A DNA stretch of 62,372 nucleotides, the filler included, from Hausera hauseri (taxonomy: Eukaryota), in NCBI GenBank assembly GCA_046269625.1. It is 12 parts of 12 records of this genome, joined end to end, with 100 filler letters (N's around TTAATTAATTAA, not from the genome) between each part and the next. Parts side by side here need not be neighbours in the genome. Positions count along the whole stretch, not along the records: positions 17,487 to 23,816 come from JBJURY010112432.1; 11 more parts are not named here. The stretch is one strand, 5' to 3'. Below, piece by piece: positions 8,246 through 61,165 of the stretch. A program made the position numbers and the translations under genes. Position 1 is the first letter of the stretch, and every line of letters starts with the position of its first letter. Below the pieces are notes generated by a model. The model did not search any database. It saw nothing but the letters and a program-made list of their open reading frames with translations, and was not told the origin of the DNA.

Positions 8246-8264
8246 TCGGATTCAATTTACGTGC

Positions 8265-8640: not shown

Positions 8641-9036
8641 CATTTAAATCCCCAATTTAACCAAAATAATGAAAGCACTTATAATGATTATTATAATCTG
8701 TCATTTGATGTTTCCAGCAAATGAAATTAACTTTACAGTTTTTTTTCTTACTTGGATAAAGTATTGGATAAATATTAATTAATGATTAAAAAGTATTGTT
8801 ATAAATGTGGGGTAATCAAATTCAGTCATAAACAGAAAATAACATACACCTTTTACAGAAATGCCTACAACATAATCACATTTGCTTATTTAATGAAACA
8901 AAAATTAACAACTAGCAAACATATCCACAGACCCACTATAAATCTTCGATGGCGAATTCTGTTTATATGTTTAGTAACATATCACAAGATAAATTAGATT
9001 AAACACTGACTGCCAAATACATTTCAAAGTGCATTT

Positions 9037-9131
9037 ACACACACAAACACACACACACACGCGCGAGCGCGCGCGCGAACGCACCCACGCACGCACCCAC
9101 GCACACACAATGTTTACTAAACACACACACA
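9037..9131. repeat. Compound (CA)n/(CG)n/(CACG)n microsatellite
   Basis: Directly visible. Confidence 0.9.
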
Positions 9132-9260
9132 TACAAATCAAATTGCATATAGGCATCCACGTGCAAATCGAATTTTCACGTTTATTTACCAAACGAACCT
9201 AGACACAAATTATGTATAATAAACTTTAAGCATACACAGACAATGCACGCATTTCATATA

Positions 9261-9380: not shown

Positions 9381-11140
9381 ATCAATCAAACTTTTTATTC
9401 AGCCAATACTAGGTCCATAATAAACAAGAACAAACAACAAAACAACAACAAAACACATTAAAAATAGAATGTTCATCCATTGCCATATAAATTAAGGCGC
9501 CAGTGATTCCACAGACTAGAGAAGAACCTAACCGAGCTTTGTACGGGGTTGGTCAGAGTATAAATGATGTTATTTACAGAGTCTGTTAGCCTACACATAC
9601 ATCTGTACATGAGGTTTCGAAGCACAGCAGCACAAGTTGGTACGTTGGCATTTACAAACATCTGACTGGCACTGCTCCATCGCGGCACCTTAAGCAGCAT
9701 CCTCAGGCCATCATTGTACGCCACCTGAAGTTTATGCATACTGCTTTTTCTGTAATGCCGCCACAGGTGGGCAGTATACATTGGAGTACAGTATGCTTTA
9801 AAAAGTACAGTTTTTACAGATGTTGAGCACATAGAGAACTTCCGAAGAAGCATATTAGCTTGTGCATATTGCATACAACGCTGCCTGTAAATGTCCCTAT
9901 CATCAGACAGGTCAGCGGTCATGTAATGTCCCAAATATTTCACCTCATCACTGACTTGGAGGATGCTGCCAGACAGAGTGAAGTCAGGGAAAGATAATTT
10001 TGTGTCCTCTTTGCTCCTGACAATCATGATGTTACTCTTTCTCGCATTATATTTGATGTCAAAATTCAATCCATACTGAGAGCAAACCCTTAACAGTTGC
10101 TGCAGACCAGCGCTATATGGACAAAAGATTACCAGATCATCAGCATACATCAGATGGTTGATGGTTCTATTGCCAACCCGACAGCCTGTCCTACATTGAT
10201 TCAACAGCTTAGATAAATCATCCATATACACATTAAAAAGGCAAGGAGACAAAATGCTGCCTTGTCGCACACCATTACTCACATAAAAAGAAGATGATAC
10301 AAATGTTCCCCATTTTACAGACATAGACTGGTGAGCATACCAATACACTAAAATTCTTAATAAATATTTCGGAACTCCTCTATTGTACAATTTATAAAAC
10401 AATTTTTCATGATTGACACGATCAAATGCTTTTGAGGCATCAATGAAACACATAAAAATTGTGGTATTATGCCTGTTGTATAAATCCAAGATCTCCTTGA
10501 GAGCAAAAATGCACATATCAGTGCCATGGTTTGGTTTGAAGCCAAACTGGTTATCAGATGTGAGAATAAACTTCTCTAATCTATTAAGCATAGCCCTCTC
10601 CAAGACCTTCGATAAAGTACTGGCCAGAGCTATAGGTCGATAATTGTCTTTGCTATTTATTTTGCCAGCCTTATTTTTTACAACAGGCACTAAAATCACT
10701 GACAATATAGAGTTTGGTAAAATGCCATGAATTAAAAACCCAGTGAAACAAATAGCTAGCAAGGGAAAAACTTTTCTGCTTGCAAACTTTAAGTGCTCTG
10801 CAGATATCTTATCTGCCCCACATGCCTTACTATTTTTCAGCTTCATAACAATATCACTAACTTCTTGTGCAGAAATAGTGACATCTTCATGTTTGTCTAT
10901 GTTGTCTATAACGAAGGGATTACTTTTGCTACAATTAAACAGTTCATGATAATGTTCCTTCCATAACTGAATAATTTGGTCTGGTCCGTTTGCACCATCG
11001 ATGTTTGTTGGCAAGGATGTTTTTAGATTATTGATTCTTTTAATTTCTTTCCAAAATTCAGTAGGACTGTTATGTTGTAATTTCCTTGCAAGTGACTCCG
11101 ATTTAAGCATGTTTTCATTCCTCTTAATAAATCATAGAAC
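9381..11140 (-). mobile_element. 5'-truncated non-LTR retrotransposon (LINE, RTE-X-like)
   Basis: RT ORF plus 3' UTR with AATAAA and short (TTGA)n tail. Confidence 0.88.
9473..11110 (-). CDS. LINE reverse transcriptase domain, uninterrupted 545 aa
   Basis: NYRPIAL, QFGFK, DASKAFD, GVRQGSILSP, YADD, KYLGH; C-terminal LFKAYCTPMY as in RTE-X-like elements. Confidence 0.95.
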   Translation of the reverse strand: MLKSESLARKLQHNSPTEFWKEIKRINNLKTSLPTNIDGANGPDQIIQLWKEHYHELFNCSKSNPFVIDNIDKHEDVTISAQEVSDIVMKLKNSKACGADKISAEHLKFASRKVFPLLAICFTGFLIHGILPNSILSVILVPVVKNKAGKINSKDNYRPIALASTLSKVLERAMLNRLEKFILTSDNQFGFKPNHGTDMCIFALKEILDLYNRHNTTIFMCFIDASKAFDRVNHEKLFYKLYNRGVPKYLLRILVYWYAHQSMSVKWGTFVSSSFYVSNGVRQGSILSPCLFNVYMDDLSKLLNQCRTGCRVGNRTINHLMYADDLVIFCPYSAGLQQLLRVCSQYGLNFDIKYNARKSNIMIVRSKEDTKLSFPDFTLSGSILQVSDEVKYLGHYMTADLSDDRDIYRQRCMQYAQANMLLRKFSMCSTSVKTVLFKAYCTPMYTAHLWRHYRKSSMHKLQVAYNDGLRMLLKVPRWSSASQMFVNANVPTCAAVLRNLMYRCMCRLTDSVNNIIYTLTNPVQSSVRFFSSLWNHWRLNLYGNG

Positions 11141-17486: not shown

Positions 17487-20400
17487 GAGAAGTCCACGGA
17501 TGATGACGTAGCAGAAAAAGAATTTATAAAACCATTAATACTTAAAATTACGAAAAATAGATGCCGTAGCCCTTTCTTAAAAACGAGACGTAGAAGTCGT
17601 TCAAGCTGCAAAATAACTAGAGAGAAAATCGAAAAAAAACATCCGAATATCGTTGTAGAGAGTAACGTAGACCATAATTTAAATACACCGGACATTGGTT
17701 CACTCACACCTGTCGGAGTAGCGGAGTCTATAAAACCAGTTAATGAAATTAACGAGATTTGTCCACTTCCCATTGGTGAGGAAGAAACAGAGAATACGGA
17801 GGATTTCGACCCAAAAAAGTGGAAAGTCCGGCGTTCGTGGAAAAACGCCGATGAGTTAAAGAAAACAAGAATTAGATGTTATAAACCAGAATTATTGCAA
17901 CGAAATTTAAAAAGGCTCAAGCAAATCCGTGAACAAGTAGACATATCCGGAAAAGAACAACAGTATGCGGAGAGACTATATAAATGCCTAAAACTATACG
18001 GTGAAGGTAAGCTCGCAGAAGCAATCGACTTAGAACAACCAGAAGAGGTATCAACCGAAACGTTGTTAAAATGGAAGCAGGAATTAGAATCCTGGATTAA
18101 AAGCGGAGTAGAATTTTCGGAAAGATGGAATAAAAATGAAGATAGAGTCGACATAAAAGTCACCAAGGCTCAGACGCTATTGTCTGCTTTGGAGGCAAAC
18201 CCAAAATTGAAGAGAGTGGCCCGAAACTTAGAACGTATGATAAACGAAATTCGTTACGCAGTGATCAACCGGCTTAGGCAAAACCGGTTAACCATCGCAG
18301 TAAGATCGATTTAGAAATATTGGATATAGACCCATTGGATATTCCTCCCTTAACGGAGATAATAAAAATCGCATTTGCTACGCCCAAACAATATACAAGC
18401 CTAGAAAATCAAATTAAGACAGAAAATGAAAAGCGAGCTCAGATTTATAGCTTCAGGAATCAAATCATGTCCCCAAATCATAAGGAGACTCAATATCTAA
18501 TAAAAGCTTGTATCGTAGAGTTGGATGATTAAAAGGACGAGTTTAGTTATGTCGGCCGGATTATGAACTTCGTAAAGGACCGGACGATGAGTTAGAAGAT
18601 GCATATAAGATGCTAGATAAGGCTATACTGGCCAAGCCAGTTATCGCAAATCAATTGTCGGAATGGTCCGAATTAGTAACGCGATTAAGCTGGCTTGTAG
18701 AAGATCGGAAAAAGGAATTTCCGCAAAGCGAGCCAATGGTAAGGAAGCAATTAAAAGAAAGTGCACATGATTTAGGCACTATGCGAATAGAAATAGACAT
18801 CCGTACTCAATTTGAAGCGCAAAGACGACTAAAATTTATGGAAAATGAACGAGAAGAGTTGATATTGGAGGAGATCTAAAAACTGATTGAGGAGACGAAT
18901 TTTACGGAAAAGCAAAATATGATTTACTATGTGAACTCAAGGTTAAGGGTTGTTCGACTAGAAAGAGTCCAATATTTAACGGGAAAACCGATCGACAAAA
19001 TCATTGGCCAAGACATTAAAATCTTGGACATTTGTTTAGGACATCGAGATACGTTAACGGACGCAATAAAATTCTTTCACAAACCACAAGAATGGATGGC
19101 TGGATCAGATCAGAACTTCCATACCAAGTTGGCGAAAATATGGGACGATCCACATTTTAGTTTTCAGGAACACAAGTTCGTAAAAAAATTGTAGGTTCAA
19201 TGGACCCTGACTCAAAGGTTATAAATGAGATGTATTGGTGGAAATGGCAGAAATCAGTAAGAGAAGATGAGGCAATTGATTCCAAAGATACAGAAAGTAG
19301 AAAAAACATGTATCAAAACGAAACAGAGAGCGACAAGGTTAAACGAAATAACAAAAGTGCTTGAAGTCTACCCAAACAAATATGCTTTTACCGAGTCAGA
19401 AATCAAGAATAAAGGAGAATTTGTACAGAAATGGCAAAAAGATGTAGTCATTTAATTAACAAATTATCACCAGAAGGGACTCATCAACTCTAACGAATTC
19501 GGAGAATTACTGAAAATGACTCAATATGACTGTGGAAATGAAGTAGGGTTCCGAACTACGCAGATGAAGGAAATACAACCCAGGTTGAAAAAATTCGAGA
19601 AAATGTGCAAAGAACAAGTGTAGCCTTAGTAGGCGTTGGACTCCCAGATGTCGGTAATGAGACAGAATGGGATGCATACTTCGACGCAATGCTGATCAAA
19701 AGCCCATGACTCCAGTACAACTGAATGAGATAGAAACTAGCCCACGGAACAGAAGATTCAATGTGGAGATGCTACTAGATTCACCGCTAACTGAAAAAGA
19801 TTTGATTCAATTAATTAACATAAATATTACTGAAAATAAATTAAGACAACTTATTCCAATTTTAACTAAATTATCTAGTGAGAACACAATTTATAGCACG
19901 ATGCCAAAACTTTTGATAAAAAAATCTGCTAAAATATTAAGGACTAAACTGGAAGTAACGATGAAAGTAATGATATCATCCGAGTGGATGGATGAAAAAG
20001 AATGTGAATTAACTACATATTCCTATGTAACAGATGTGAGAGAATGGTTGTTAAACAATAATGGAACAAACGAACTAAATTACAGATTTTACTTTAGAGG
20101 TAGAATACTCGACGACCTAGAACAGCTAATAGATGTCGGGATTATTCCCGACGAAACAAACCGGATAGTAGCAATAATAGCTAACGAACAGACAAAAGAA
20201 GAAGCCATACGTAAGGCCAAAGCGGAACAATGCATAGGACAAATTATGGGAGTCCGCGATTCTGCAATGTATTTTGAGTACTTACAAACGGATGAGGATA
20301 AGGAACAATATGACATAAATTTAGTACCACTGAGCGAAATAACATCAAAAAGGCCGAGGCCAAAAGGTCCAATCGGTAGGCCTAAGAAAACGCGAGAAGA

Positions 20401-20898
20401 AATGGACTATAATGGAGAACTGATTACAGAATTAAGACAGATGTCGATTCCGACCCTTAGTACAGATAATGAAAAAGTAACCAAATTAATGAAGAATTTA
20501 ATACGAATCGTGAATTACTCCAGTCTTCGAGGTGATGTATTAGATGATAAAGAAAAAAATAATATTCGATGCAGCCAAAATGATGCGAAGCTCACGTTTC
20601 AAACTATCAAAAAGTAACCCAACCGATGAATCGGTAATCGAAAAGATTATGATAGAGAACACCAGCGAAGAATTGAGAAATGTATTATTATACATAGCTA
20701 TCAAAATAAATCCTAACCGAGAGAGTGAAATCAATAGAGCTATAAGCTTGGCACGAAAAGCAGCAAGAAGAATGCTTTGTGAAGTAAATTGGGCAAGACT
20801 GTTTGACAGGGAAGAAGATAGGCGGACCAGTAATAAATTCGACGATATATTACGTAATTTAACAACGACGGATGTTGGCCACCGGAAAAATGAGTCAA
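17487..20898 (+). pseudogene. Large helical/coiled-coil ORF1 (>1100 codons, interrupted) with an internal UBL and AT-hook-like motif
   Basis: Chain of ORF pieces 17895..20993; no canonical Gag motif recognised. Confidence 0.55.
19949..20182 (+). CDS. Integral ubiquitin-like domain (no terminal GG)
   Basis: LEVTMKV...YVTDVREWL...NYRFYFRGRILDDLEQLIDVGI...IVAII matches the beta-grasp pattern (RLIFxGKxLxDxxTLxDxGI). Confidence 0.7.
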
Positions 20899-22760
20899 AT
20901 TGGTTAATCAGCTTACTTACATTAATGATGCTAATAAAACACATAAGCGCAGTTACAGTCTATGATTGCGATAAGTTTAAACTAGGACAGTGATATTTCC
21001 TAATGGATCTGAAAGCATGTGAAGATACCAGACCACACAAGTTGGAGACAAAAGAGAGAAATTACTTCCTGTATCAGCAGCAAGAACTGATATCACTAGA
21101 TGGAATGGAATGTATGCTGAGACGATGGCATAGTATTTTTCACTGTGGGTTGGTTTATGGACACTCATCTATAATCAAGCCAACGACTCCACTAATTCCA
21201 ATGAACTTAGAACGCCAACACTGTATGCAAGCCAAGGAAACTGGAAGAATACAATGGGAGAGTATACAATTAGAAATGCAGCCAGGAAAAATAATCAGGG
21301 CATATAAAATAGTGGCCGGAAGACTAGATATGTATAGCGGACATTGTAATGAAGCAGAATACGACACTGGGAAAGGATTGGAGGCAAACGTAGTGGTTGT
21401 GGATTTCTACGAATCAGAAATGCCATCGCAGAAGGTAATGTTCCATAGTGTCACCAAACTATATACAGAAAATCAAAAATGTCATTTACAAGACGGAACC
21501 TGTACTTTTAGAAGTTCGGTTACAATATGGGAACCTCCCTCTGGAAGAAATTGTAATTTTATTAAAATTAAAGAACTAAAGTTCAATAAGATTACAAGAA
21601 AGAGATATGTGGACAAATCAGAAACCAATTCGAGGACACGTGAGGACGTATCAGAACACACTACACCTACTATATTAATTTCGGATCAGGATGGATTGAA
21701 ATTTATTAAGAAAGAGATGATATCTCGCTGTGATGTAGTGATGTTTGCTACGAACTATGAGGCGTTTTTCGTCGAAGAAACGGAGATAAGTGCGAAAACG
21801 TATAAGCTAGAAACACAGGATGTCCGCATCAAAGATTACCTGAAGAATAGAGACGATTACTTTTACTAAAAAGGACAAGTTGGAATAACGGAATTATATC
21901 ATAAAATGATAATAAATGAATGAAAATTGGATACAAAAATCATGAGAACTAAAATGGCTCTGATATATGCAAACCCAGAGTTGGCTTCACTAATAATTCC
22001 AATGAGAGAAGGAATTTTCGGTAGGGTAACAGACGAAGTATTGCTAACCTATGAATGTGAAAAGAGTTATGTACCCATCAACATGGAAGAAAAACGTTGC
22101 ATTCAGGAGCTTCCTGTGATTTACCAGAATATTCCGAGATTAGCTACACCATTGACAAGAATGTAGTTGGATAATGCTACCCAACCAACCATCCTTAAAA
22201 ATTGTAAGGCAAGCTTAGGAGAACCTATGTTTAGACGTAGTGAGACGGACTGGGTCAGCTTGACAAATGGAGGTATTATTGCCGCTCCAAATAAATTAAC
22301 AGGAGCAAATCTAGCGAAAGGAATTACAGGTGATAAATTTCAAGACATCTCATAGAAAGGTATATACAGGCCGAAGGAAATTGAGGCCTTTAAACAATTC
22401 CTTTCCCTTCCGCGACAACGAACACATGAGCTAAATCGAGCTATGGCTTCTGTAGTAGATGATACACGATACCAGGCTAAATGGGAATCTCTACTTGGTG
22501 TAAATCATTACCAGCGAGTAACCACAGAAATACTCTATAAAGTTTGGGGAAGATTTTTGATTTTTGGACAAGCCGCATCCGGATTTTTAGCGTTATATTT
22601 TCTGATACAAATGATTAAGGTAGTCATCCAAGCAGTAATTAATGGGTACGAAATATTTACATGAACTGGATTTTCTTGCAAGATACTGACTGTATCATAA
22701 CGCCTTTTGGGAAATTCTTAAAGGCATACGAAGAGAACAGATGGAAATCAAACGTATAAC
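20899..22760 (+). pseudogene. env: Chuvirus-like / gB-type class III fusion glycoprotein (env), interrupted
   Basis: Internal signal peptide WLISLLTLMMLIKHISA then VYDC; HCG..GHSS; EVLLTYEC..CIQELPV..PLTR; TM WGRFLIFGQAASGFLALYFLIQMIKVVIQAVING. Confidence 0.82.
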
Positions 22761-23419
22761 GTCACGTTGGATATCATAACCGTAAACGAAGGAGAAGACC
22801 TATATTTCTGCGTAAGCGGAAATCTATAAAGCATATTACACGAAGAAATAACTCAGACGATGACGAGCCTAAGGGAGGAGAAGCACTTCCAGGAATAAAG
22901 AGACACAAGATGTATTCGGTCATTAAGGCGCCATTGCCCATGCTACCTCCTACTGCTCCATTCTATGATGATTGCGACAAACGATCCATGAATTCATATC
23001 AGACGGACATTTATAAAATAACAATTAATGTAGAAGATCCTTATGAAGGAACGAAACGTTACGGAATCTTATGGAAAATGTGTTATCGACAATCCACAGA
23101 CGGCCCAAAGATGTTGTATTCTCCGAGAGAACCTCGGAACATAGAAACTAAATGAACGGTTTCGGAAAATCCAAGATTAAAATCTTTCCAGAATACTGAA
23201 TTACACATTAACAATCGAGAACCATTAATTAGCACACACGAAGCGGAAGAGTTGCACATAGAAAATAACAAATTATATTCAAACGAAGAATTAAGACAGC
23301 TATCGGAGAACATAGTATCCTCCCCCGAGATCCGAATCAACGGACACAAAATATCGGCGGTGAAACGCTCGAAAGATACATCAAACTGTTTTGGAACAGT
23401 AATAGAAGGAAGATCCTTC

Positions 23420-23755
23420 GCCAAAATCATTATTGAAGATGGGAAAGTTTATGCCTTAATCGATAGAGGATTGGAAATGTCTTACATAAAAATGATTCAA
23501 TACCNNNNNNNNNNCGAACGCTGCGAGGGCAATTATACCCACCGTCTCCTAAAGACCCAGGCAGTACAGGAGCTTTTGGTCAAATGTCAAAACCAATGTT
23601 TAAGTGGAACCAAGAAATTCAAATAGTTGGACAATTTTTCCATCACGAGTTTGCAGTTATGAAGCAATTAACCGACGACGTAGTTCTAGGATGTCATCTC
23701 CTAAAAAGACTGCAAATATAGCAATTGACTTACAAACAGGAAGGCTAATAGAAAT
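23420..23755 (+). pseudogene. Retropepsin-type aspartic protease (DRG variant)
   Basis: ALIDRGLEMSYI ... VVLG ... IAIDLQTGRL, homologous to 58114..58788. Confidence 0.65.
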
Positions 23756-23816
23756 CAGGCCGAACAGAGGCGTGAAAAGCGCTAAGGATGGAAAATTTGG
23801 AGAAGTGTAGATACCA

Positions 23817-23916: not shown

Positions 23917-23954
23917 TCTGGTTGAGACATTTTCATAAGTGACACTTACACAGC

Positions 23955-24135
23955 GGTATTTATAGAAAATTGGTGAAATTTAAACAAAATTTTTTGGCAC
24001 AAACTGACCAATCAGATTATGTTTACCGCGAAAGTTAAACAAAGTGGGGTGGGAATAGTGAAACCCAATCTGTGCTAGAAATCCCTTTGTTCACAGCAAC
24101 AATTTAAACAAATTTTTTCGCGCCAAATTCAAATT
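23955..24135. promoter_or_regulatory. Promoter-like region: TATA (- strand), CCAAT, GTGGGAA motif, E2F site TTTCGCGCCAAA plus TTCAAA
   Basis: Motifs at ~23958, 24008, 24046..24067, 24116..24133. Confidence 0.5.
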
Positions 24136-24323
24136 TTTTATACCGCCCTGAATCCATACAATACGCCTAATTGTGTGTATCGCTTTCATAACTGTGCGTC
24201 TGCAATCTTTGCCCTATTAACCGTGTATGTGTGTATCATTTTTTTACCCAATGACTCACCTTCGAACCCCTGTTTTTCTTCCTTCTCTGGGAGGGGGTGT
24301 GACGCAAAGATGCCACATCTACC

Positions 24324-24466
24324 TACTTGCTACGACTTAGTCACAAGGATACTTGTTCGTCGACTTTACTCAACAGTTTCCCGATGACATGCGTGTACGA
24401 ACAGAGATTTTCAATAAGAAAGGTGCATGTGTCTATAAACAAATTCAAAAATCGACAACACGATAA
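24324..24466 (+). pseudogene. Packaging ATPase C-terminal fragment (copy 1)
   Basis: GYLFVDFTQQFPDDMRVRTEIF. Confidence 0.7.
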
Positions 24467-24512
24467 TGATAAAATGAAAAATTTCCGACAAACAATTGTT
24501 AAACCTAAACCT

Positions 24513-24718
24513 ACAATATCGTTGTGGGTCACGTTGACATGGGTAGTGGAAAGAGAAATTTACCAAAGTATCAAAAACGACTCATTGGCCTTGCCAACAC
24601 CCGTAGTAAACGACTTAAACGAGAGGTCATGTACCAGCAAGATGGCGGATTCTTTGGTGCAATTCTACCTTTTGTCACGTCATTAGTGGGTGGACTTATT
24701 GATTCTCCAGCAGCATAG
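24513..24718 (+). pseudogene. Polinton core/membrane-active protein with QxGGF amphipathic tail (copy 1, N-terminus deleted)
   Basis: KREVMYQQDGGFFGAILPFVTSLVGGL. Confidence 0.7.
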
Positions 24719-24829
24719 TATAAACAATGACGGTAAGTATGTGGCGATTCGGCGACATAGGTGCATGGTTTTCATCATTTTGTCCCAGTTTACCGAATCT
24801 TTCATTTTCGTTTCGTTCTAATTGTTGTA

Positions 24830-25500
24830 ATGCAAGCCAAACCGGCACCATCGACGACAACGATGGGCAAGGTGTGGTTCGACCCGCGTCATCCCGTCAG
24901 ATATACTGACGTCGACAAACTGGCAAAGACTATTAAACAGACTCGGCAACAGACCCAACGTTTGCTCAAGAAACAGTTAGCACAAAGTCTAAACAAACCG
25001 ATACTAAGGCGGTTTTCAACTCGTACATACCGTGCTTCCGGTGTAAATAACGTATGGCAAATGAATCTGATTGAAACGATTCCGTACGCCCGCATCAACG
25101 ATGGGTATCGGTACGTGCTAACATGCGTTGATGCGTTTAGTCTTTTTGCACGTACAATTGCCGTGAAATCTAAATTCGGTAAAGAGATTGCCGATGCTGT
25201 TCAGACACTGATACAACAACAGCAGCCGAAGCATTTACAAACGAATTTGGGTAGAGAATTCTACAACGCCCACGTTGCAGCGGTCTTGAAACGGTTTGGC
25301 GTGAACCACTACTCGGTGTTTTCCCAATAAAAAGCTGCACTCGTTGAACGATTTAATTTAACATTGCGCAATCGCCTAAACAAATTCTTCATGAAGCACG
25401 GCAACAAACGCTGGATAGATGTACTACCGGATATTATTCATGCATACAATCAGTCGACACATCGTGGCATCAATAGATTACTGCCGGTTGACGTAATCAG
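24830..25500 (+). pseudogene. Polinton retroviral-like integrase (copy 1, truncated)
   Basis: VWQMNL, YVLTCVDAFS, LQTNLGREFYN, ERFN.TL, WIDVLPDII. Confidence 0.9.
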
Positions 25501-25524
25501 GCGGACAGCATCGAACAAAAAATC

Positions 25525-25781
25525 TAAACGTACATTATTTCGTGCTGTTTAAAAATCCCCGTGATCAGACTATCATTGATTATTCTGCACAACAAAGTTT
25601 TCGTCACAACCGAGCCTACTTGATACATGCATATGATGATGATACGAACAAACCGCATGGATATATGTTTATTAACTTTACACTAGAGTGTCCCGATAAC
25701 ATGCGTGTATGAACAGACACTTTCAATCAGAAAAATGTACGTGTCTATAAACAAATTCAAAAATCGACGACACGATAGTGA
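25525..25781 (+). pseudogene. Packaging ATPase C-terminal fragment (copy 2)
   Basis: VLFKNPRD arginine finger, KPHGYMFINF..CPDNMR. Confidence 0.8.
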
Positions 25782-25785
25782 TAAA

Positions 25786-25947
25786 ATGAACAATTTTCGA
25801 AAAACAATTGTTAAGCGTAAACCTACCAAGCGGGTGTCCGGCGGCAAGAAACGTGTATCAAAACGATCCGCCGCTATAGTCAAGCTATTAATCAATTCTG
25901 TGCTTGGAACAATAACAATTAGACGCAAATTACCGTCACAGTGGTAA
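25786..25947 (+). CDS. Small K/R-rich putative virion core protein
   Basis: MNNFRKTIVKRKPTKRVSGGKKRVSKRS; VSGG resembles an adenain site. Confidence 0.45.
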   Translation: MNNFRKTIVKRKPTKRVSGGKKRVSKRSAAIVKLLINSVLGTITIRRKLPSQW

Positions 25948-25988
25948 CGGTTATAAACAGCTACGTCTTAGCATCAATACGTCCAAAA

Positions 25989-26312
25989 ATGCGATTCAAA
26001 CGTAGTAAGCCGTACTTTATTTCTTTGCTCAAGGCACCTACGAAACATAACCGAAACATGCTACGATCATTTCCGCAATTTATCGTAAACGGTTTGATGG
26101 AAATTTTATACAATATCGTTTTGGGTCACGTTGACATTGGTCGTGGAATGCGGAATTTACTATAGTATCAAAAACGGCTCACTGGCCTTGCCAACGCTCG
26201 TAGTAAACGACTGAAGCGAGAGGTCATGTACCAGCAAAATTGCGGATTCCTTGGTGAAGTTCTATCGGTTGTCACGACATTACTGGATGGACTCACTGGT
26301 GGAACAGTTTAG
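25989..26312 (+). pseudogene. Polinton core/membrane-active protein (copy 2)
   Basis: LMEILYNIVLGHV...KREVMYQQNCGFLG...; one internal stop. Confidence 0.7.
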
Positions 26313-26423
26313 TATAAACAGTGACGGTAAGTATATGATGATTTAAAGACATGGGTGCATGGTTTTCATATTTCTGTCCCAGTTTACCGAATTTTTGATT
26401 AACGTTTCTTTCTAATTATAGCA

Positions 26424-27471
26424 ATGTAAATAAAAAAGACATCATCGACGACAACGACGGGCAACGTGTGGTTTGATCCGCATCGTCCCATCGGGTACAC
26501 TGGCGTCGACAAACTGGCAAAGACTGTCAAACAGATTCGGCAACAGACCTAACATTTGCTCAAGAAACAGTTAGCATACAGCCTAAACAAACCGATAAGA
26601 AGGCAATTTCCAACTTGTACATACCGTGCTTCACGTGTAAATAATGCATGTCAAATGGATCTCATGGAAATGATTCCGTACTAAAGCATCAGCGATGGGT
26701 ATCAGTACATGCCTTGATATGTTTAGTCGTTTTGCAATGTGCAAATGTCGTGAAATCTAAACCGGGTAAAGCGATTGCCGACGCTGTTTAGACACTGATA
26801 CAACAACAACAGCCGATGCATTTACAAACGGATTTGGGAAAGGAATTCTACAACGCTAACGTTTCAGTGGTCTTGAAACGGTTTGGCGTAAACCACTACT
26901 CCTTGTTTTCCCAATACAAGGCTGCATTCGTTGAACAATTTAATCGAACATTGCGCGGTCGCCTAAACAAATTCTTTACGAAGCAAAGCAAAAAGCACTG
27001 GGTAGATGTACTGCCGGATATTATTTATGCACTCAATCATTCGACACAACATGGAATCAACGGAATGCGTCCGGTTGACGCAATCGGTGATTTGGACATG
27101 TGGCTTTATGAAAACCGAACACAACGACAACAGATAATTAAATGCCCAAAATATAAAATCGGTGCTTACGTACGTATTTCAAAAATAAGTACGACGCCAT
27201 TCATTAAGAATTTCAATCAGAAATTGAGCGACGAGGTTTTCCGCAATTAACAGAAAACAAACGCCTATCATGTACGTTTTAGAGGACGAAAACGATGAGG
27301 AAATACGCGGTAAATTCTACGGACAGGAACTGCAGGTACAGCCCGAGAAACCCCATGTGTCGTATTCAGGAAATTCTACGTTCACGTGGCAAAGGTTCTA
27401 ATAAACAATACCTCGTCAAGTGGCACGGATACACTGCATCGAGATGGATTTTTGCACCACAGATTCAATGA
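26424..27471 (+). pseudogene. Polinton integrase with C-terminal chromodomain (copy 2)
   Basis: LQTDLGKEFYN, EQFNRTL, PKYKIGAYVRIS, GKFYGQEL, YLVKWHGY. Confidence 0.92.
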
Positions 27472-28522
27472 GTAGCAGCAATTACTTGGTACTTGATAGT
27501 AAGAGATCATTATCACAACATGACGACAATGACGATAATACCGCTAAACAGTTTACCATGCACTTGGACCAACCGGTCGATTTACGCCAGTGAGACTGGA
27601 AAGTGCCTTTGACGGAATTCACATTTACATTTTCACCAATGACAATACGTTAGAACAGTGGTATTTACTTTACCTGACAAGAAACGTACCCTATTTCAAG
27701 CCGTTTGCAGACAATCCGACACAATAACCGATATATTCTTCGCAATTATTCGCGACATTTCTCGGTTTATGCTTATTTTTCAAACTACCGTATGAAACTA
27801 ATGCATCGAAATCCCATTGAAATGCAGGTTAAATCTATAGCTGATGCTCAGGCATTGGGTTTTCAATCAGTTAATGTACACTCAAAACGTCTACAGCTAG
27901 GTGGACATGTTATAATTAGTGAAAAATTGGACTTTTCATCCAATGCGGAATCTGATATTATAGTAAAGTGGACTAAGTCAGAATCAGTCTTCCGCTCTTA
28001 TATTATACCACACGATTTACTAATGTAAATGGAACTGGAATTGTGAGTACGTCAAGAAAACGGCTACATTAGCCGTAAAGACATGTGAAATAAACGCATA
28101 TGGTCATATTTCGATTATACTACATGACAATGTTACATATTTTCCCTTTGATGAATTATTGGCTCGGAATCTGCGTTTTTCAAAACGCTAATTCTATCAA
28201 AACATTGTTGGACGATCTATTGTTGCCAAATACAAACCACCACTCTGGAGCATTTTATAGAATGAACATTTTAACGCACTTAACCGAATCCGTACTTGTT
28301 GGTGGAGAACGTAAACAACTACTGGCTTCTATCGAACTGGATTCTAACACGTACAAAATATCTGGTAAAACTGTTCGTATTAATATGTTCAGACTCATGT
28401 ACTTATCATTGCCTCACAATATTGTGCACAGTATTTCCGTGTATATGCTTGATGAATTTTGGAAAACCATTAAATTTCTGCTTGGAGCCAAGACACATTT
28501 GATGCTACATTTTCGTTGTTGA
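27468..28522 (+). pseudogene. Minor capsid protein (penton) 1
   Basis: YLVLDS..N...F...LDQP..WEV.LTE; C-terminal ESVLVGGERKQLL...THLMLHFR. Confidence 0.8.
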
Positions 28523-28570
28523 TAATAAACAAACTGCATCATCACTATCATCATCATCATCATCGAGATC

Positions 28571-29653
28571 ATGAGTATTTACATGGTGTTGCCGAGCAAC
28601 AGTTGTCCGACGACCCGTCCGAACAATTCAGCCAGTGAATACGTTGTAGATTGGAACAATCCTTTGGATTTATCTCGAAAATGGGAGGTTGCACTGACGG
28701 AATTTAACTTTCCCTACGCACCGATGACATTGACAAGTAGTATGAAAATAACGTACTAAAAGACTGTTACTGAAACCAAAACACATTCTTGTCCTCTGAC
28801 ACTTACTAACAATAAAGTAGCAGTTGGAGAATCGACCGTTTGCACGACCGAAGCAAATTACTGTTCACACGGCAAAATCGGTGTTTTTATTTTAGATCAA
28901 AACGTATATTTTATGGCAGATTTTGAATTAACTGTTACCTTTGAGTCCTCTGAGATGGCGCAGAAATTTGGATTCAAAAATACAGAGTACAAAGGTCAAC
29001 ATATTAAAAGTGAACATTTAGTTGGTCCAAGATTAAGTCCCGTATATTACCAGACAACTATGAAATATACCTATACAACCCAAAGGGTGTCAACGTCATA
29101 CGTATCGATTGGAGACAATGTCTATTGCGAATCTGTAGCACATCTCTGTCAACATTTTTCTTCAAATTAAAAGTACAAGGAGATATTTAAAGTTTTCGAG
29201 TCAGATGCATATGGGTACATTAAATTTGAACTGGCTAAGGATATTGTCGACATTTAATTGGACAAAGCTTTGGCCATGGTATTGAGTTTTGAAAAACAAC
29301 GGTTTGAGGCATCGAATAAGAAGACGGCGGAACATGCTGCAACACATAAACCCAAACTAAAAACTGGACAAAGTCAAATGTACATTTACGTGAACGTCAC
29401 CGAACCGATTTTGGTGGGTGGAGTAAGTGTACCGCTACTCCGTGCAATTTAACCGGAAAGCAGCAAGTATACTGCTGGCGACAATGTCACAGTCAAGCTC
29501 GATAATCCAATGTACCTACCTGCGGCATCTACATCTATAAACAATGTTGAAGTAAATATCCGATGTGACACGGGCTAACTTATTTAATTTCCGTACAGTA
29601 CCACAACCAGTCTAACTCTTCATTTCCGTCGAATCCAACAACAAAATGATTGA
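28571..29653 (+). pseudogene. Minor capsid protein (penton) 2
   Basis: YMVLPSNS..PNNSASEY..WEVALTE; YIYVNVTEPILVGGVSVPLLR...TLHFRR. Confidence 0.85.
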
Positions 29654-29995
29654 TTCTGAAATCGTTTCCATTTACAGTAAACTCCAGCAAGGCCGTGAAC
29701 TGCCGTATTTCGTTGGTACACAATATGGCTCTGGATGGTTGCGTACATTGGCACGTTCAGCATTTCCGGTGTTGAAGCGTATCGGACCCATGGAAGAAAA
29801 ACAGTACTTGATGTACTACATGAAAACAAATCAATTTTACCATCATTGAAGGAACACTCCTTGACAAAAGTAAAAACCGCTGCACCGGGAGTCGTTGAAT
29901 CGGTCAGAAAGCAATTCGCTTGTATGAGAAAACGTGGTAGATCAGCTAGCTTTTCAACTATAAACAAAAGCCTTCGTCGTACGATTTTCGATTGA
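29646..29995 (+). pseudogene. Adintovirus core protein (QYGSG-type)
   Basis: QQGRELPYFVGTQYGSGWLRTLARSAFPVLK; basic C-terminus ending RRTIFD. Confidence 0.7.
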
Positions 29996-30002
29996 TAGAC
30001 AA

Positions 30003-30602
30003 ATGGCATCTGCAAAATCTGAATCGTGTATATTCGACAAAGCCGCACCACAGGTTTTTATTGACAATGCAGCATATGAAGACATCTATCCCGTTGATTC
30101 GGTTTCAACGGACGACAACATTGACATTCAATTTAGCATTATGGCATCGGACAATGAATACCTGGATTTGAATGATACGCTACTGTATGTAAAAGTCATT
30201 GCTAAAAATGATGCATCAACGGTTCTTGCTGCAACAGACACTGTCACACCGGCCAATTACATTTTCCTCACACTGTTCCAGGAGACTTCACTGACTCTAA
30301 ACAGCGTCAAAACTGAATGCAACACCAGTCTATACAGTATCGAAGCACTCATTGAAACGGCTCTGAATTACAGTACAGACACGAAAACTACTCATTGGAC
30401 AAGAACCTTAGGATACGATGCCACAGCGGCAAACCGTCAGGCACGGGTGGCAGAATCAAAAGCACTTACCATGTATGGACCGCTGTACTTTGATTTTTTC
30501 GACCAGCCGAAATACCTACTGCCCGGTGTTAAAGCCATGATTCGATTCAGACTCAGTGACAATGTCTTTTGTTTGAAAACCGCCGTTGCAAATATCAAAG
30601 AT
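30003..30602 (+). CDS. Major capsid protein (double jelly-roll), N-terminal half, cut by contig end
   Basis: KSESCIFD..PQV, YLDLNDTLLYVKV, DFFDQPKYLLPGV. Confidence 0.88.
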
Positions 30603-30702: not shown

Positions 30703-32986
30703 CAGGATGATGTAACGAATGTACATTATAAAATGCTTGTTTATGTAAAGATGGAGCAAGAATTATTTTGTATTGTCCTCGTTTGGAAGTATCTAAGGCC
30801 ACGCCGTCGATTATCTGATGAGATTTGAACGCTTTGAGAATATCTTGCGATGGCTGATTTTCCTGGAGCTTTGTCTGAGTGAAGATTGGCGAAAAATTGA
30901 TCGAACCGACTGATCTGGATAGGAAATCGGAATCTAGATTGTCAACAACCTCAATATGTTTGATGGCAAAAGTTGAATGTGGACAAATATGAACTTTGCC
31001 GTTCTTGTCGAGTTGAAGGGTGTTTCATTGCCATTATATTAATCAACGGCTTGTGATCAGTCTGTACAACAAAATAGCGGGCTGTAAGTAAATGAGAAAA
31101 ATGTCTTAAAGCGAGGACTATTTCCAAAATTTCCCTATCGAAAGTTCAATATCTAGTTTCTAGTGGCGTTAATTTTCGGGAAAAGAATTCTACAGGTTGA
31201 TTTTCTCCTTTGTACAACTTGTGTAATACAGCACCTACTGCGATGTTTGATGCATCTGTAATTAAAATTAACTTGACGTCAGGTTTAGGAAATGCTAAAA
31301 TTTCGACAGTCTTTAGTTTTTCTTGTAGTCTATCGAATTTATTGACTAGCTGTGGTGACCATACGATTTTCCGGTGTTTTTTCCACCGCTTAAATGTGCA
31401 AAAGGTGCCTTGAGTTCCGAACAATATGGTATATATTTGTGGACGAAATGCCCGGTACCGAGAAAACTGCGAATTTCTGTTGTTGTCTTGGGTAGTTGGA
31501 CATTTTTAAGGGACTCGACTCGATCAGGCTGAGGTGAATGGCCGTTTGAAGAGATAATGTGTCCGAGGAAATTAACGCGCTTTTAAAAGAAGTTACATTT
31601 CGCGAAATTGATCTGCAGGTTGAACTGGTTAAGTCGTTTGAAAATGGATCGTATGTGTTCCTCGTGTTGTTTAACTGATGAAGAGGCAACCAAGATATCG
31701 TCAATATATGGATGCGCAAAGGTTAAATCTGAAAGTATTGAATCGATGTGTCGGTGAAAAGTCTGCGCGGCATTCTGGATTCCGAAAGGCATATACAAGT
31801 ACTCATAAAGACCGAAAGGTGTGGTAACTGCAGCTTTCTCGATATCTTCCGGTGCGACAGGAATTTGGTGGTAAGGTTTGGCTAAATCGATTGTCGAATA
31901 AACTGAAGTAGTATTAAGCCGATGTAATATGTCTTTGATTAATGGCAGTGGATATGCGTCCACTGTGATTAAAGTATTAAGTTGGCGGTAATCGCCGCAT
32001 GGTCGGAAGGATCCATCTGCAACGTGGAGAGGCGAAGACCATGGTGATTTAGATCTGCGGACGATACCTGATTTTTTGAGTTCCATAAATTCAGCTTCTA
32101 TTGCCTTTATGCGTCGCGGTGACAATGGACAGACCTTTTATCTAATTGGCCTTTGATGTCTTGTAATTATATGGTGGTAAATGCTGTTTACTGGAGTGAA
32201 ATCCCTATCTTTCTGAAGTATACGAGGACAAGAAGTATGGACGAATTGTTGTAAACTTGCGGGTAGTTGTTGGAATATTATAACTGACGATGAACCGAGG
32301 TTGCTAGCAATACTTGGTATATGGTGATTGGTTACTGATGAGGAATCAAGTGGAGTTTGGAGTAGGATGGTCGGGTCCGGAACCGTGTTTGTGTAGGTGT
32401 TATTGTTCAATGATTTTACGGAAAATACCATATTGTCGGTGTAGATATTGAGCTTTGATTGGCTGTCGACATTGTCCTTTGGAAGCTTACAATGTAAAAC
32501 GTGATATTTATTGAAATTAGAACGGGGTATTGACCGTTTTAAAATAGATTGCTTACTTACTGTTGACTGTGGTGTCGTTGGGATGTTGTCTATACCTGTG
32601 CTACAGTCTACAGGTGTATTCGCTTTCAGGCAGCGTCGGTTACAATCGACTAGCTAATTATAGTGCAAAAGGAAATCTGAGCCAAGTATTGCCGTCTGGA
32701 CGTTAACGACTGTAAACATCCAATGAAGTGAATAGGAAAAGTTTGGTAGAGTGAAAGCTAATTTGCAAGTTCCGGAAATACGGAGAAATTGATCAGATGC
32801 AGTGCATAAAGGTTTTATTTTAGGTGAAGAATGCTGAACAGGAAAAGAAAGTGGTAGTAGTGAGATCGCTGCGCCAGTATCTATGAGAAAATCTACGGAT
32901 TGAATATTATAATTAGAGATAGCAGCTTTTAGTGTGAAGATTGCAAATGAAGTGTGTCGGCAAAAGAAACTAGACAAGTTGCCTTT

Positions 32987-33028
32987 GCCAGGATCTGCCG
33001 ATAATACTGGCGGCGAAATCAGTTTTTT
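32987..33028 (-). promoter_or_regulatory. -1 frameshift heptamer AAAAAAC plus pseudoknot
   Basis: AAAAAAC TGA TTTC GCCG CCAG TATTAT CGGC AGATC CTGG; same spacing as 2619..2660. Confidence 0.8.
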
Positions 33029-34116
33029 GGATTGGTGAGTTAGAACGGTTACTGTTAGAGACATTGGGACGTCTATCAGTGGTATAGTTTTTGTTAGTTT
33101 TATAGATACAGCCGGAAATACAATTCAGAGCATTAGATCCGAATTTTGCATGATAGATGCAAATTATGTTATCTGAGGGTAGATTCGATGAATAATATCT
33201 ACACCGTAAACAGCATTTATTTGCTTTGTTGTTAAATTTGTTGTGGTAATAACATATGAATGACCGCGTTGGTGACGGTGTTCGATTTCTGGAAGGAGAA
33301 CGTGTTCGATGAGGGAGGGAGCATTCCGTCAATATAAAGAAAGGTCATTCAGCTTATCATTGATGGTGTTGATTGTGTGTTGGAGAGCCGCATTTTCGGC
33401 GCGTAATTGGTTCATTTGGTGTTCGATGGATGTATGTCGTTGATTGTCATCGGTCGTAATAGCGGCTAATATGATGGGTTGTGATTGGATTGTAAGACTT
33501 CGTGTGCTTTATCTGCCAATTCAGCCAGTTTACATAAGGCTGTAGAATTTTCAAAAACGGTAAGTAAAGCCCTAATTTGAATGGGTAAGGCATTAAGGAA
33601 ATATCATCGAAGTAGATCTGGTTTATGTTCCTTGGTGACGCCTAAAGTACGTAAGTGAACCAAAAAGGTGCGTAGGAAATCACTTGGTTTTTGTGTCCCC
33701 ATTGCGTTTTCGTCAAAGAACCGTTGAATTATAGAGTCAATTGTTGGTTCTGTTAGTTTTAATACAGCATCGAACAATTGGGTATAAGGGTCAGAGTGTT
33801 GAAATATGTTCAATAAGTTATGTATTGAGGCCTTTGTAGAGTTTGGTAGAAGATAGAGTAGATTATGGGCTTTGGATAACAAGTCTGTGATACCATTGGA
33901 CTGTAACCAGAGTTGATGGAAGTGGAGCCAGGTTTTGCTAGACTTCTCATTGTCTATAAAATATTCAGAGCAATGTGGTGAAGTACTGATAGGATTTTTG
34001 TGAGAAAAATTTGTATCGGTTGAAGTAGGTGAATGGCTTGATTTGGGATGGTAGAGAATGAACTTGGGTTTTGTGGTCACCTTATCAGTGGTGTCACTGG
34101 TTGGTTGAGAAATCAT

Positions 34117-34713: not shown

Positions 34714-35235
34714 TTTATTAATTTCTACGTGGCCATCATTGAATTCACGCATTCCTACGAGAGTCAAACACCTCCGAACGTAAAAGTATAGTTTACCAAT
34801 TTTGTCCAATGAAGCTAATTTAAATTTCAATGTAGAATAAGTAACTTTGTCAACAATAGCAAGATATCTTGAAAAACGATGTCGTGGACAAAGAATAAAG
34901 TGAAACAACTGTTGAATAGAATACACGAAATTTATGATCTGAGGAATAAAAAAAAGAAGTGTTTTGCTGAAATGGCCTAGAATTGCAACGAAGGTAAAAG
35001 TGGTGTTGAAATAATTGCAAAATGTATCACCAACGAACGCCTTTGCTGGATATCGATTGTATTAAAAAAAACCGAGGCAACAGAAAACGTACGGAATCAT
35101 AAAAATCAAAGAGAAAAGATTATTCTGCCGAGACGGACCGGTAACAAATGCAATAAAATTGAAGCAAGAAATAGACCCTGCAATAACCGAAGTTTGGTCA
35201 ACTTCTATTCCATTAATACCTGCGTAAATATTGAT
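34714..35235 (-). pseudogene. DPAGT1: Intronless fragment of UDP-GlcNAc:dolichyl-phosphate GlcNAc-1-P transferase
   Basis: INIYAGINGIE..Q, NRYPAKAFVGDTFC, ILGHFSKTLL, FIPQIINFVYSIQQLFHFILCPRHR are DPAGT1/ALG7 signature motifs; one stop plus indels. Confidence 0.9.
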
Positions 35236-36605: not shown

Positions 36606-36785
36606 TAAGTTCCGAGTTTACAAGGGGGTATGAGACTAGTACCTCCCGGTGACTGAAGGAATATTGTAAAAGTACCAGTTATTTTTTTGGGGAGGGGGGG
36701 TATGAAACAAGTACCTTTCGGTTTCTGAGGGAATATTGTATAAGTGCCGAGTTTACGTGGGAATATGAGGTAAGTACCGTTTTGA
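36606..36785. repeat. Degenerate tandem repeat, ~30-40-bp units alternating as a ~63-70-bp dimer
   Basis: Recurrent (t/a)AGT(A/G/T)CC, GGGGGTATGA and GGAATATTGTA blocks. Confidence 0.65.
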
Positions 36786-49555: not shown

Positions 49556-49556
49556 T

Positions 49557-57470: not shown

Positions 57471-60400
57471 ATGTAGGTGCCGTTTTTAATCCGAATGGCA
57501 TGCGCGTAAATTGATAAACGCCTGCATGCGTTTTAAATGCAGTTTTCCAACGATCCTTTTCGGCTACGGAAATCTGCCAAAATCTTCTCTCCAGATCCTT
57601 TCAATTCATCAATAATATCTCTTATTCGTAGTATTGGATAAGCATTGTTCGCCAAATGTTTGTTCAATGTAAAGTAATTTACGAAAAACGGTGTTTCGTA
57701 GTATTAGCTTTCTTAGCCATAACTATAGGCGACGGCCATGGTGATTGGCTAGGTTCAATGATGCCTTTTTCTAGCATGGCTTGTATTTTCTCCTCAACTT
57801 CCTTTTGGCGTGCTTTTGGAGGTGAGTACCATTTTGGTATCGGTTGTCGTGGTAAGTCTATTTCTCTTTCAGTTTGAGGATCCATCATGAATGGTAGTTT
57901 GAACTTGACTAAGTCAGTTCGGCCAATGTCCGTTTCATTTTTGGCAAATATGTCAGTGTATTCAAGGATGAGATCTGAGAAGTTCTCAAGATATTCAGCG
58001 ACTAGATTTTTCTTTACACTAATGAGAACAACATCGAATATATAATCTGCTTTAGTTTCCTTATCTTCAGTGTTGCTGCGATTTTATTATCATGTTCAGA
58101 TTGACGGATAGTTTCATATGAATTGGCCTAGTTTCGTTCTTGCAAACATTGTAATATACTTAGAAGATAAATTTAAAACTGCGATTTGAACTGTTCCTCC
58201 AGTTACATAAACGCAATAGTGTGGCAATAACAGTCCGTTTTGAAATGTCCGTGGTACAAATTCAATTATTTTATTATCTGGAAATATTGTTCTAGCATGT
58301 ATAACCTTCCTAGAATTAGGTGGTATTTTCTCCATATGACCTATCCAAATGTCCGTTTCGTCGTACTTATCCAGAATATTCTCATTATTTGGACAAAGCG
58401 ATCCTGACTGCAAGTTTATGTGAAATCCTTCTAAATTTCTTAATACATTCATTCCTAAAATACATCGGAGATCTACAGTTGTCATCACATCTAAAGTCAC
58501 TTTTAGTTTTTTACCACAAATTATAAATTTGCATTTCCAATACTTATATGATTTCGGATATTGCTGAAAGGCTGCTGTCGTGCCAATACAATCTGTGGAA
58601 GCCAATTTTGTTTGTGACTGATACTCGTCTGGTATCGCATGTTCTGCTATTAATGAAACTCTGGCTCCTCTATGTACCATTACATTTATATCGAATGTAC
58701 CAAAGTAAACTGTCGTATGATGTCGATTATCTCTTATTAACTCGAGGAAAGTGGCGATGCCATTAAGATCATCTATATGCGGCTCCATTAAGGTATAACT
58801 TGTTGCACAACAACTTGGTGACCCATTGGATAATATGACCGTTAAACTATCTAAAGTTTGTGTATCATTTGTTGATTCTTTCGTTCGTTGTTTGAATTCA
58901 GTTAAATCTGGGTAATAACTTGTACATTATGTAGAGTTTTGTTGTAATTTACCAGGTATCATCATTGAAATCGAATAACTTGTCCTTCCGTTTGGTTGTT
59001 CGATATCATTATAGTTGGTTTGTCTAATTAGTTTTACTCTATGATGAAGTATAGGTGGCAACGTACATAATTTTGGAGAGATTGGTAGTGATACTCTATT
59101 CCTTTCCATACTTTGAGTAATAATAGATTGAAGTATTTCTTCTTGCAAACATTTAGGAATACTGCGTAGCCTTATGTACTCTTCTCATTTAGCATATGGA
59201 TTATTCAAATCAGATAACTTTGGTAGTTTGTCAATTGTCTGTTCGTCAATCGAACGTGTTTTATTTTCATACGGAGCGTCTGGTACTATACAATTGCACT
59301 TTAGTCTTGTTTTCTTTATTATGAAAATTTTTCGGATTTTCTGATTCTTTTTCTTAGAAATACTTGGTTTTGAGTAATGTCCAGGTGCGTCATCACCATC
59401 GTCTGAACTTGATGAGGTATCTTCCAATATCGGATTGCCTTTCTTATAATCCACATGTTTTTCTAATTTACCTTGCAATTGATTTTCATGATAAGCTTTA
59501 ATAAATTTGCCAAGAGGAAAAAATAGAGTACCAATTATGCTCAAAGATAATCCTGTCAGATTGGAAATTTCCTAAGCATTTAATACCGAATTGATACAGA
59601 TCTTCAACGTTTGCAGGATAAAGTAAATAGCCAGAAATCCGGAAGCAACTTGTCCAAATTTTAGAAATCCACCCGACATTTTGTGCCACAAACTGAAAAC
59701 TATTTTTGTATAAGTGTCGGGTGTCCACAATCGATCCCATTTTCCTTCTCCAGTGGAATCATCAATTACTCTATGTATTTCTCTGTTTATTACCTGTTCT
59801 CGTTGTTTGGGATATGCCGGAAATTTTACAAATAAGTCAATTTCTTTTTTTCTATACAAAGCTGACTTTGATACATCAGTAAACATATTCGTTTTGATGG
59901 CATTTCTGAGATTAGTAATCGTCAATTTTTTGGTTGTTCCTTTACTCTATCTCTATCAGGTAGTCTAACCCATAAGTCTTGATTATCATATTTGATAAAT
60001 GGTTTGTTCAGTATTGTACAGTTTTGAATTTCCGTTGGTATTGTATGTGGTGCCAACAATACTCTAGTTATTGGCTGAAAATATCGAATTTCATCTTTAT
60101 ATTTAACAGGTATTTCTGAACTGCACGGGGTACCCGTGACTAAAGATAGTTCCAGTTTCTTACATTTGTAGGTAAATAACACTTCTCCCTGGATTCCTTC
60201 ACCATATGGTAATGTTATCGTTATCATTTCTGAATTTGAAGCGTAAATAGTCAATCGATTCCTCAATGTCTCAAAATTCATCTAACAAAAATTTTGTATT
60301 ATCTCAGAATATATTTCCTCTACCGTTTTGTGGGTGAGTTAAAATAAGAAATCGGCTCTGTTAGCAATATAGTCGTCAGCAATGTTCACTAATATGGTTT

Positions 60401-61122
60401 TGTTGATCGGCGAATTATCTGCCTGTGCGATCTCTTTTTCCGACATAAAATAATTTTTATAAAATGTGCTGAACACTTGTTGTCCACATGTAATAGTTAC
60501 ATCTTGTTGTATGAATTTGATACCTCCTTTGATATCTTTTGATATTATAATTTTAGGAGTTTGTTTTCAAAATTTGTTTCGTAATGTCGAACATAACGTT
60601 TTCCTGCCGTTACATTGAATTCACCTTTTCGAATCTGTACCAATGAGCAATCCTAGCTCTTAGGGGGTGTACATACTATCGTAGATGACTTTGTGTGACA
60701 ATGTTCAATTTCTAATTTTCAAAAAGATGCATCCATCATTGTGTTTCTACTCGTTTCGAAAATAAAGGTATTTTCTTTGATTTCTACTTTATATTGGTCA
60801 TATACTACCACTCCTGAAATGACATATTCCCCAGTATCAAGATTTCCTCCTCGGCAATTTCCTTTTTCATCCTTATGTCCGGTAATCCATTTTTCTTGTT
60901 AAGAAATGTGGCCTTTAATCGCTGTTAATAGTATGTCTCCCCATTTTACTTGTTGAGTTTCAGCTGCATCTCGACAATGAGTGGGATTAAGCGACACATA
61001 TCTTGGCATTGTAGTCGTCTGTATTAAAGAATCATGGTGTAAGTGTCCACAATATGTTATAGTGCGGGATACTCGCAACGAGTATTGTAGTACTTTTATA
61101 TGGAGCGTGCTTTTGTCATTAT
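57471..61122 (-). mobile_element. Ty3/Gypsy-type retroelement with env upstream of PR-RT, decayed
   Basis: Order on - strand: glycoprotein (61122..59500), linker, protease (VMVHRGA..ILGMN), RT (GIIEPSQSPWPSPIVM..MPFGLKTAP). Confidence 0.85.
59500..61122 (-). pseudogene. env: Chuvirus-like / gB-type glycoprotein (env), N-terminus cut by Polinton insertion
   Basis: ITYCGHLHHDSLI..HCRDAAET..W; GEVLFTYKC..CSSEIPV..PITRVL; TM FLKFGQVASGFLAIYFILQTLKICINSVLNA. Confidence 0.82.
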
Positions 61123-61165
61123 AGTAGTTAGAACGGAGGACTTCGCATTAACCCCCCCCCAGAAA

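Follow-up and report, generated by a model that had tools for sequence, protein, structure and literature searches.

Whether a retroelement envelope gene can precede the protease within one polyprotein, and whether such an arrangement is new, are the questions raised by this stretch of Hausera hauseri DNA (62,372 nucleotides; hereafter the window), in which the initial annotation had proposed an undescribed architecture. The window consists of 12 short contigs joined by 100-base spacers, has a GC content of ~38%, and is dense in fragments of retroelements and other repeats. Contig A (17487-23816, plus strand) and contig B (57471-62372, minus strand) carry copies A and B, respectively; their domain order is also that of intact relatives. 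Our reading, to which we give a probability of roughly 85%, is that both are decayed, mutually divergent copies of Burro-like Ty3/Gypsy LTR retroelements, whose layout would be Gag (CA, CCHC), Ubl/SUMO-like, AT-hook and Bcl-2-like domains, signal peptide, Env, transmembrane segment (TM), protease(s), RT, RNase H, and integrase in a single giant ORF. Both copies are dead. The contigs end before Gag, RNase H, integrase, and the LTRs, none of which lies within copies A or B; no long direct or LTR-like repeats were detected within either contig, and Rfam and tRNA searches gave no match.

The gag-env-pol layout itself is already published. In the planarian Burro/GYPSM1 elements, env lies in frame between gag and pol (Arkhipova and Yushenova, 2019; PMC6431247), and this review gives the anatomy as Gag-Ubl-BCL2-env-PR-RT, with Ubl/SUMO-like and BCL2-like domains ahead of an env with mononegavirus-type fusion homology, a dUTPase-like domain between PR and RT, and MATH_TRAF_C either in the polyprotein or in an upstream ORF (PMC6431247). 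In the same account, Burro elements are giant (ORF of ~4900-5100 aa, 25-30 kb), possess LTRs and BIR/ankyrin domains, and inhabit dugesiid planarians, with decayed copies known from Dugesia japonica; that the Ubl/Bcl-2-like domains act in ubiquitin and apoptosis pathways is a speculation made in the review (PMC6431247). GAG-ENV-POL gB-type Ty3/Gypsy elements were also described in Nematoda, Bryozoa, and Platyhelminthes (Chary and Hayashi, eLife, PMC13524379; Sacco et al., 2022, therein), with at least 9 flatworm and 10 bryozoan rows listed in that paper, where the POL tree does not group these elements as a single clade. The same paper lists ENV-GAG-POL elements with a short Gag from two oribatid mites (6 rows, all with F-type env; PMC13524379). 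Because of the Burro and GAG-ENV-POL publications, the proposal of an undescribed architecture is unsupported, and what is new here is the divergent (~31% identity), dead members.

The glycoprotein of copy A occupies a frame of ~600 codons from 20898. A predicted internal env signal peptide (20898..20960, plus strand), with its hydrophobic segment at 20904, stands before the [YF]DC motif (YDC at 20961), and is followed by the chuvirus-G/gB-type (class III) env (20961..22697, plus strand), in which six in-frame stops fall among the ~580 codons after the motif. Env A matched PF24664 (Monjiviricetes_fusion) in Pfam with an E value of 7.9e-54 over profile positions 6-589 of 653, contains 14 Cys and a C-terminal hydrophobic/transmembrane segment at 22584, and is depleted of stops far above chance (P 6e-17). 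The internal signal peptide with YDC and the ~600-aa Cys-rich chuvirus-like glycoprotein of the initial annotation are both borne out by these data. A hydrophobic signal before [YF]DC was also internal in 14/14 relatives examined. In phmmer comparisons, env A was 31% identical to the polyprotein P0004 (E 1e-86) vs. ~20-24% to stand-alone glycoproteins. A sequence search of the PDB with env A returned 0 matches, and a word-indexed homologue search of env against longer proteins returned nothing, which is a weak negative.

Upstream of env, the ORF1 that had been described as running in frame into the signal peptide does so for only 118 codons (20544-20897); the contig A ORF at 19661-20617 is in a frame other than that of env and ends in a stop. 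ORF1 is tied to the same element as env by the homology of 19796..20177 (plus strand) to the domain that precedes env in relatives. This stretch, a predicted helical and ubiquitin/SUMO-like domain, matched a pre-env profile of four relatives with an iE of 4.1e-9 (next best 0.036 in 72 frames) and a profile from five relatives with an iE of 4.7e-11, so that the case for homology, as judged from these profiles, is strong. Its identity as a ubiquitin-like domain is suggested by sub-threshold leads, in that ESM Atlas ubiquitin/Rad60-SLD clusters scored 0.84-0.85, beneath unnamed clusters at 0.85-0.86. The single-sequence fold of the window region had a pLDDT of 46, the Ubl region came out as helices in the model of relative P0019, and the word-indexed homologue search with the Ubl ORF found nothing (a weak negative). 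An AT-hook-like GRP motif, recognized by pattern match at 20363..20386 (plus strand), also occurs upstream of env in 5 of the 11 relatives scanned. Further downstream, 20622..20774 (plus strand) may be a degenerate Bcl-2-like domain; hhalign aligned it to the Bcl-2-like segment of relatives with an E value of 0.009, a probability of 4%, and 0/100 shuffles, pairwise significance was reached with 1/4 relatives, and the stretch was missed by hmmsearch and by Pfam, so that we regard this assignment as a weak candidate. The reading of one short motif as a Bcl-2 BH1 box is unsupported; in the alignments, this motif falls where the domain ends.

The 5' part of contig A (17487..19620, plus strand) is a decayed coding region, with an open frame at 17487-18314 followed by frame changes; stop depletion is clear to ~18300 and weak across 18387-19736. 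It had no Pfam match and no clear match to the N-termini of 9 relatives (best iE 0.02), and neither this region nor contig A as a whole matched CA, CCHC, or MATH. The 5' region probably represents the variable part that separates Gag from the Ubl domain; Gag is at the far N-terminus of intact relatives, and contig A probably starts downstream of it.

Downstream of env A, where the reading frame changes near 22700, the cytoplasmic tail and spacer (22700..23410, plus strand) are homologous to those of copy B, the alignment score being reached in 0/500 shuffles, and they showed no Gag signature, i.e., no CA, CCHC, or Pfam match. The spacer between env and protease measures ~240-260 codons. It is followed by a decayed retropepsin (23420..23725, plus strand) with an N10 gap inside, recognized with a profile built on 25 protease segments of relatives; the C-half (23596-23725) matched with an iE of 8.1e-5, and the N-half (23420-23489), whose catalytic motif is degenerate, with an iE of 2.7. 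The linker and retropepsin of the initial annotation are thus confirmed, the latter as a remnant. RT was not found on contig A. Because of the frame changes at the ORF1/env and env/spacer boundaries, we infer the single-ORF origin of copy A from its relatives.

Copy B reaches into the start of RT. Its env (59512..61123, minus strand), detected by tblastn of relatives and PF24664 (E 2e-11 and 3e-15), is spread over three frames, lacks the first ~50 residues, and abuts non-homologous DNA on its upstream side; it is 28-41% identical to env A. The env tail and spacer (58720..59511, minus strand), which share one frame with both the env TM and the protease, gave no CA or CCHC match, so that the absence of a recognizable Gag between env and protease, as first noted, holds for both spacers. 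The retropepsin (58407..58716, minus strand) matched RVP with an E value of 0.0011 and the protease profile of relatives with an iE of 2.5e-10. A spacer domain between PR and RT (58125..58371, minus strand), at the position of the dUTPase-like domain of Burro, matched the corresponding profile of relatives (iE 4.6e-5) and had no dUTPase match in Pfam. The N-terminal part of an RT, probably of the Ty3/Gypsy type (57472..57981, minus strand; RVT_1, E 2.6e-6), is cut at the contig end after only ~170 codons, and its identity to the RTs of 7 relatives is 31-48%, the corresponding figure for an unrelated gypsy RT of the window being 30-38%. From 59922 to 57682, the env tail, spacer, protease, and RT start form one frame of 747 codons with 8 stops (stop depletion, P 5e-16). 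This frame, together with the intact relatives, supports the view that env lies upstream of PR-RT in one polyprotein; as to whether env-PR-RT was one ORF, copy B argues for it; copy A is interrupted by frame changes, six env stops, and the N10 gap. The same order had been claimed for an independent contig, and copy B does have this order; it is 5'-truncated, and the contigs are short ones placed end to end with spacers between them.

Other features lie near copy B and elsewhere in the window. An open 193-codon ORF (61763-62344, minus strand) encodes a MATH/TRAF-C domain (PF22486, E 1.5e-27) and a helical tail; it lies 640 nt upstream of the truncated env B, in the same orientation and separated from it by non-homologous DNA. 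Its best and only match in the word-indexed homologue search was a TRAF-like protein (41%), and it may represent an accessory ORF of the Burro type, an exon of the host, or a piece of another insertion. Directly upstream of env B are three imperfect repeats of ~30 nt that contain CCAAT-like boxes (61175-61337), and a 38-nt G-rich motif (24031-24067) is common to another contig; these may mark the terminus or promoter of some other repeat. The contigs at 23917-30602 and 46813-51549 are 81% identical across 3.4 kb and carry a tandemly duplicated rve integrase unit; their ORFs, without a Pfam match, resemble what we take to be Polinton capsid genes. The related contigs at 51650-57370 and 35380-40619, presumably Polinton-like, contain a decayed DNA polymerase B of the protein-primed type (E 0.02) and an endonuclease VII (E 1e-4). 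A BEL/Pao element with Peptidase_A17 and RT was found at 5243-9260 (minus strand), in which the ORF upstream (7523-8239) encodes two zinc fingers of the CCCH type instead of CCHC knuckles, and the longest open frame of the window is a 552-codon RT ORF at 9473-11131 (minus strand; RVT_1, E 6e-41). A fragment of host DPAGT1 (GlcNAc-1-phosphate transferase) at 34729-35061 (minus strand; E 2e-27 to PDB chains) lies upstream of a Ty3/Gypsy PR-RT-RH region at 30969-33124.

A phmmer search of 1.84 billion proteins gave 526 matches at E values up to 0.001, and relatives were taken from the best 150 of the 526, in which the best matches to the window env were long polyproteins (24-31% identity). We scanned 18 of the best 150 with Pfam, namely 14 top-ranked and 4 lower-ranked proteins. 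Among the top-ranked 14, an aspartyl protease follows env in 11, env-PR-RT-RH-IN lies in one protein in four, and three stop in or just past env; env 3' of integrase, which would have spoken against the order read from the window, occurs in none (0/14). The canonical position of env after integrase was seen in 2/4 lower-ranked proteins. Two cluster members also extend from env to integrase, namely P0159 and the 4844-aa P0154, which has ankyrin repeats and several proteases. Gag was located upstream of env by CCHC in P0009, P0018, and P0019 and by Retrotrans_gag in P0013. In the P0019 model, residues 54-181 adopt a capsid-like fold (RSV CA: Z 8.5, rmsd 2.8, 77 aligned; MLV, HERV-K, and PEG10: 8.1-8.3), all of these being middling scores for a helical domain. 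The order in P0019 is CCHC-ubiquitin (E 0.031)-AT-hook-Bcl-2 (E 0.055)-env, and Pfam Bcl-2 also matched P0007 (E 0.001) and P0006 (0.2); the ubiquitin and Bcl-2 matches of relatives are all under the curated cut-offs, and the model of P0019 had low confidence in both regions, with no ubiquitin or Bcl-2 structure in the best 50 rows. Multiple tandem retropepsin domains, some past integrase, were observed in P0005, P0006, P0009, and P0154, the last with 6 retropepsin stretches as counted by Pfam. P0004 (HBK71150.1), an env-pol polyprotein, is recorded as hypothetical and as coming from a Flavobacteriaceae MAG; this label probably reflects eukaryotic contamination of the bin, and a scan of prokaryotic genomes with P0004 gave 21 pattern matches, 0 of them confirmed.

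An env tree was built with FastTree (67 sequences, 583 columns, midpoint root), mostly from the top-ranked of 124 regions that passed a length filter, for which P0019 was too short. Env A and env B are sisters (SH-like 1.0) and form a long-branched pair of their own, inside a clade (SH-like 1.0) with 16 others, of which 14 are of the polyprotein type and two are unscanned env fragments. This clade stands apart from the stand-alone ~650-aa glycoproteins, and the env-after-integrase proteins P0027 and P0083 are outside it. The Ubl-like domain and AT-hook-like motif before env match an accessory-rich subclade (SH-like 0.97). A fold comparison with chuvirus G, gB, and gp64, as had been suggested, was run on the model of P0019, and its env half matched all three (chuvirus G, E 4e-23; gB/GP64, E 2e-7).

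How the two copies came to have this order has been weighed against other explanations. That an EVE of a chuvirus glycoprotein, or an env from the 3' end of one element, came by chance to lie beside the pol of another might be imagined from the mixed repeat fragments of the window and from the junction of the env B 5' end with unrelated DNA. Against this stand the one reading frame that joins the env tail to RT in copy B, the homology of tail and spacer between A and B, and the grouping of both envs away from stand-alone glycoproteins, P0027, and P0083; the intact polyproteins with the same order refute chance nesting, which we consider scarcely credible and which the initial annotation had already disfavored. 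The spacer of ~240-260 codons could instead be a short, diverged Gag, giving ENV-GAG-POL as in the oribatid mite elements, since short-Gag elements of this type exist (PMC13524379). The 6 mite elements listed in that paper all have F-type env, neither spacer of the window matches CA/CCHC, and the Gag of relatives is upstream of env, so that this explanation is largely refuted and very improbable.

To which family the copies belong is less settled. They may represent an unsampled sister lineage of Burro outside dugesiid planarians, in which case the giant Gag-Ubl-Bcl2-Env-Pol polyprotein would mark a wider animal clade of enveloped retroelements that packages Pol via the Env tail, but this extended proposal seems to us rather unlikely. 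It is a tentative possibility that they are instead gB-type GAG-ENV-POL elements of some other lineage, be it one of nematodes, bryozoans, or a new host group, sharing only the common order and the Ubl-like domain. The errantivirus survey, in which GAG-ENV-POL elements are non-monophyletic on the POL tree (PMC13524379), favors this alternative, as do the ~38% GC of the window and the isolation of A and B, which are at most 31% identical to their best relatives (best 150 of 526); the affinity of the Ubl-like domain and AT-hook-like motif to the accessory-rich subclade argues against it, and so does the occurrence of a Ubl domain between Gag and env as a Burro trait in the review (PMC6431247). 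The other-lineage explanation differs from the Burro-like reading in family label only. Strict membership in Burro is likely, as judged on its published description, not its sequence.

Standard signal-peptide topology is the basis of the topology that we propose for these polyproteins. The ribosome would make the cytosolic Gag and accessory domains first; the internal signal would then send Env into the ER lumen, where signal peptidase would cut Env from Gag, and the Env anchor would bring the chain back to the cytosol, so that Pol would start as the cytoplasmic tail of Env until the protease of the element frees it. Pol would thereby be carried into budding particles by Env, with no Gag-Pol fusion involved, and entry of the particles into other cells would be mediated by Env. 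We infer this topology and processing from predicted domains and segments, among them the two hydrophobic segments that flank env. A second predicted signal and membrane anchor, C-terminal to integrase in several relatives, is consistent with repeated membrane crossing. Our literature search, which was not aimed at processing, found no experimental test of the proposed topology in the portions of text it covered, and the packaging of Pol as the cytoplasmic tail of Env was not found described in that literature.

The discovery value of the window is small, as the architecture was already published in 2019 and both copies are dead fragments. What they contribute is a divergent lineage in a group with sparse sampling, of which at least a dozen unannotated relatives exist in public protein sets, and a host outside the flatworms would widen the range of Burro-type elements. 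The predicted topology, in which Gag is cut off and Pol is tethered to Env, offers an alternative to Gag-Pol packaging that can be put to the test.

Class III glycoproteins are known from several other systems. The glycoproteins of Jingchuvirales/Monjiviricetes, gB, and GP64 have the class III fold in common with that of the window, which differs in being an internal domain of a retroelement polyprotein. PF24664 is shared with Anakin and other mosquito BEL/Pao elements that carry a chuvirus glycoprotein, whose RT is of the different BEL/Pao type, and with arthropod GAG-POL-ENV gypsy elements with gB-type env, in which env is 3' of integrase. The mite ENV-GAG-POL elements differ in combining F-type env with a short Gag, whereas the window env is gB-type and its spacer has no Gag signature. 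GAG-ENV-POL gB-type errantiviruses, as described in their survey, resemble our copies in having a gB-type env upstream of pol, which is Ty3/Gypsy in the errantiviruses and probably so in copy B; unlike them, the window copies are not intact. The relevant passages of the survey mention neither a single ORF nor accessory Ubl/Bcl-2 domains. Burro1-4/GYPSM1 share with the copies an in-frame env upstream of pol, a Ubl-like domain ahead of it, and a PR-RT spacer, a likeness drawn from the published description of Burro, and differ from copy A in its lack of a detectable MATH domain.
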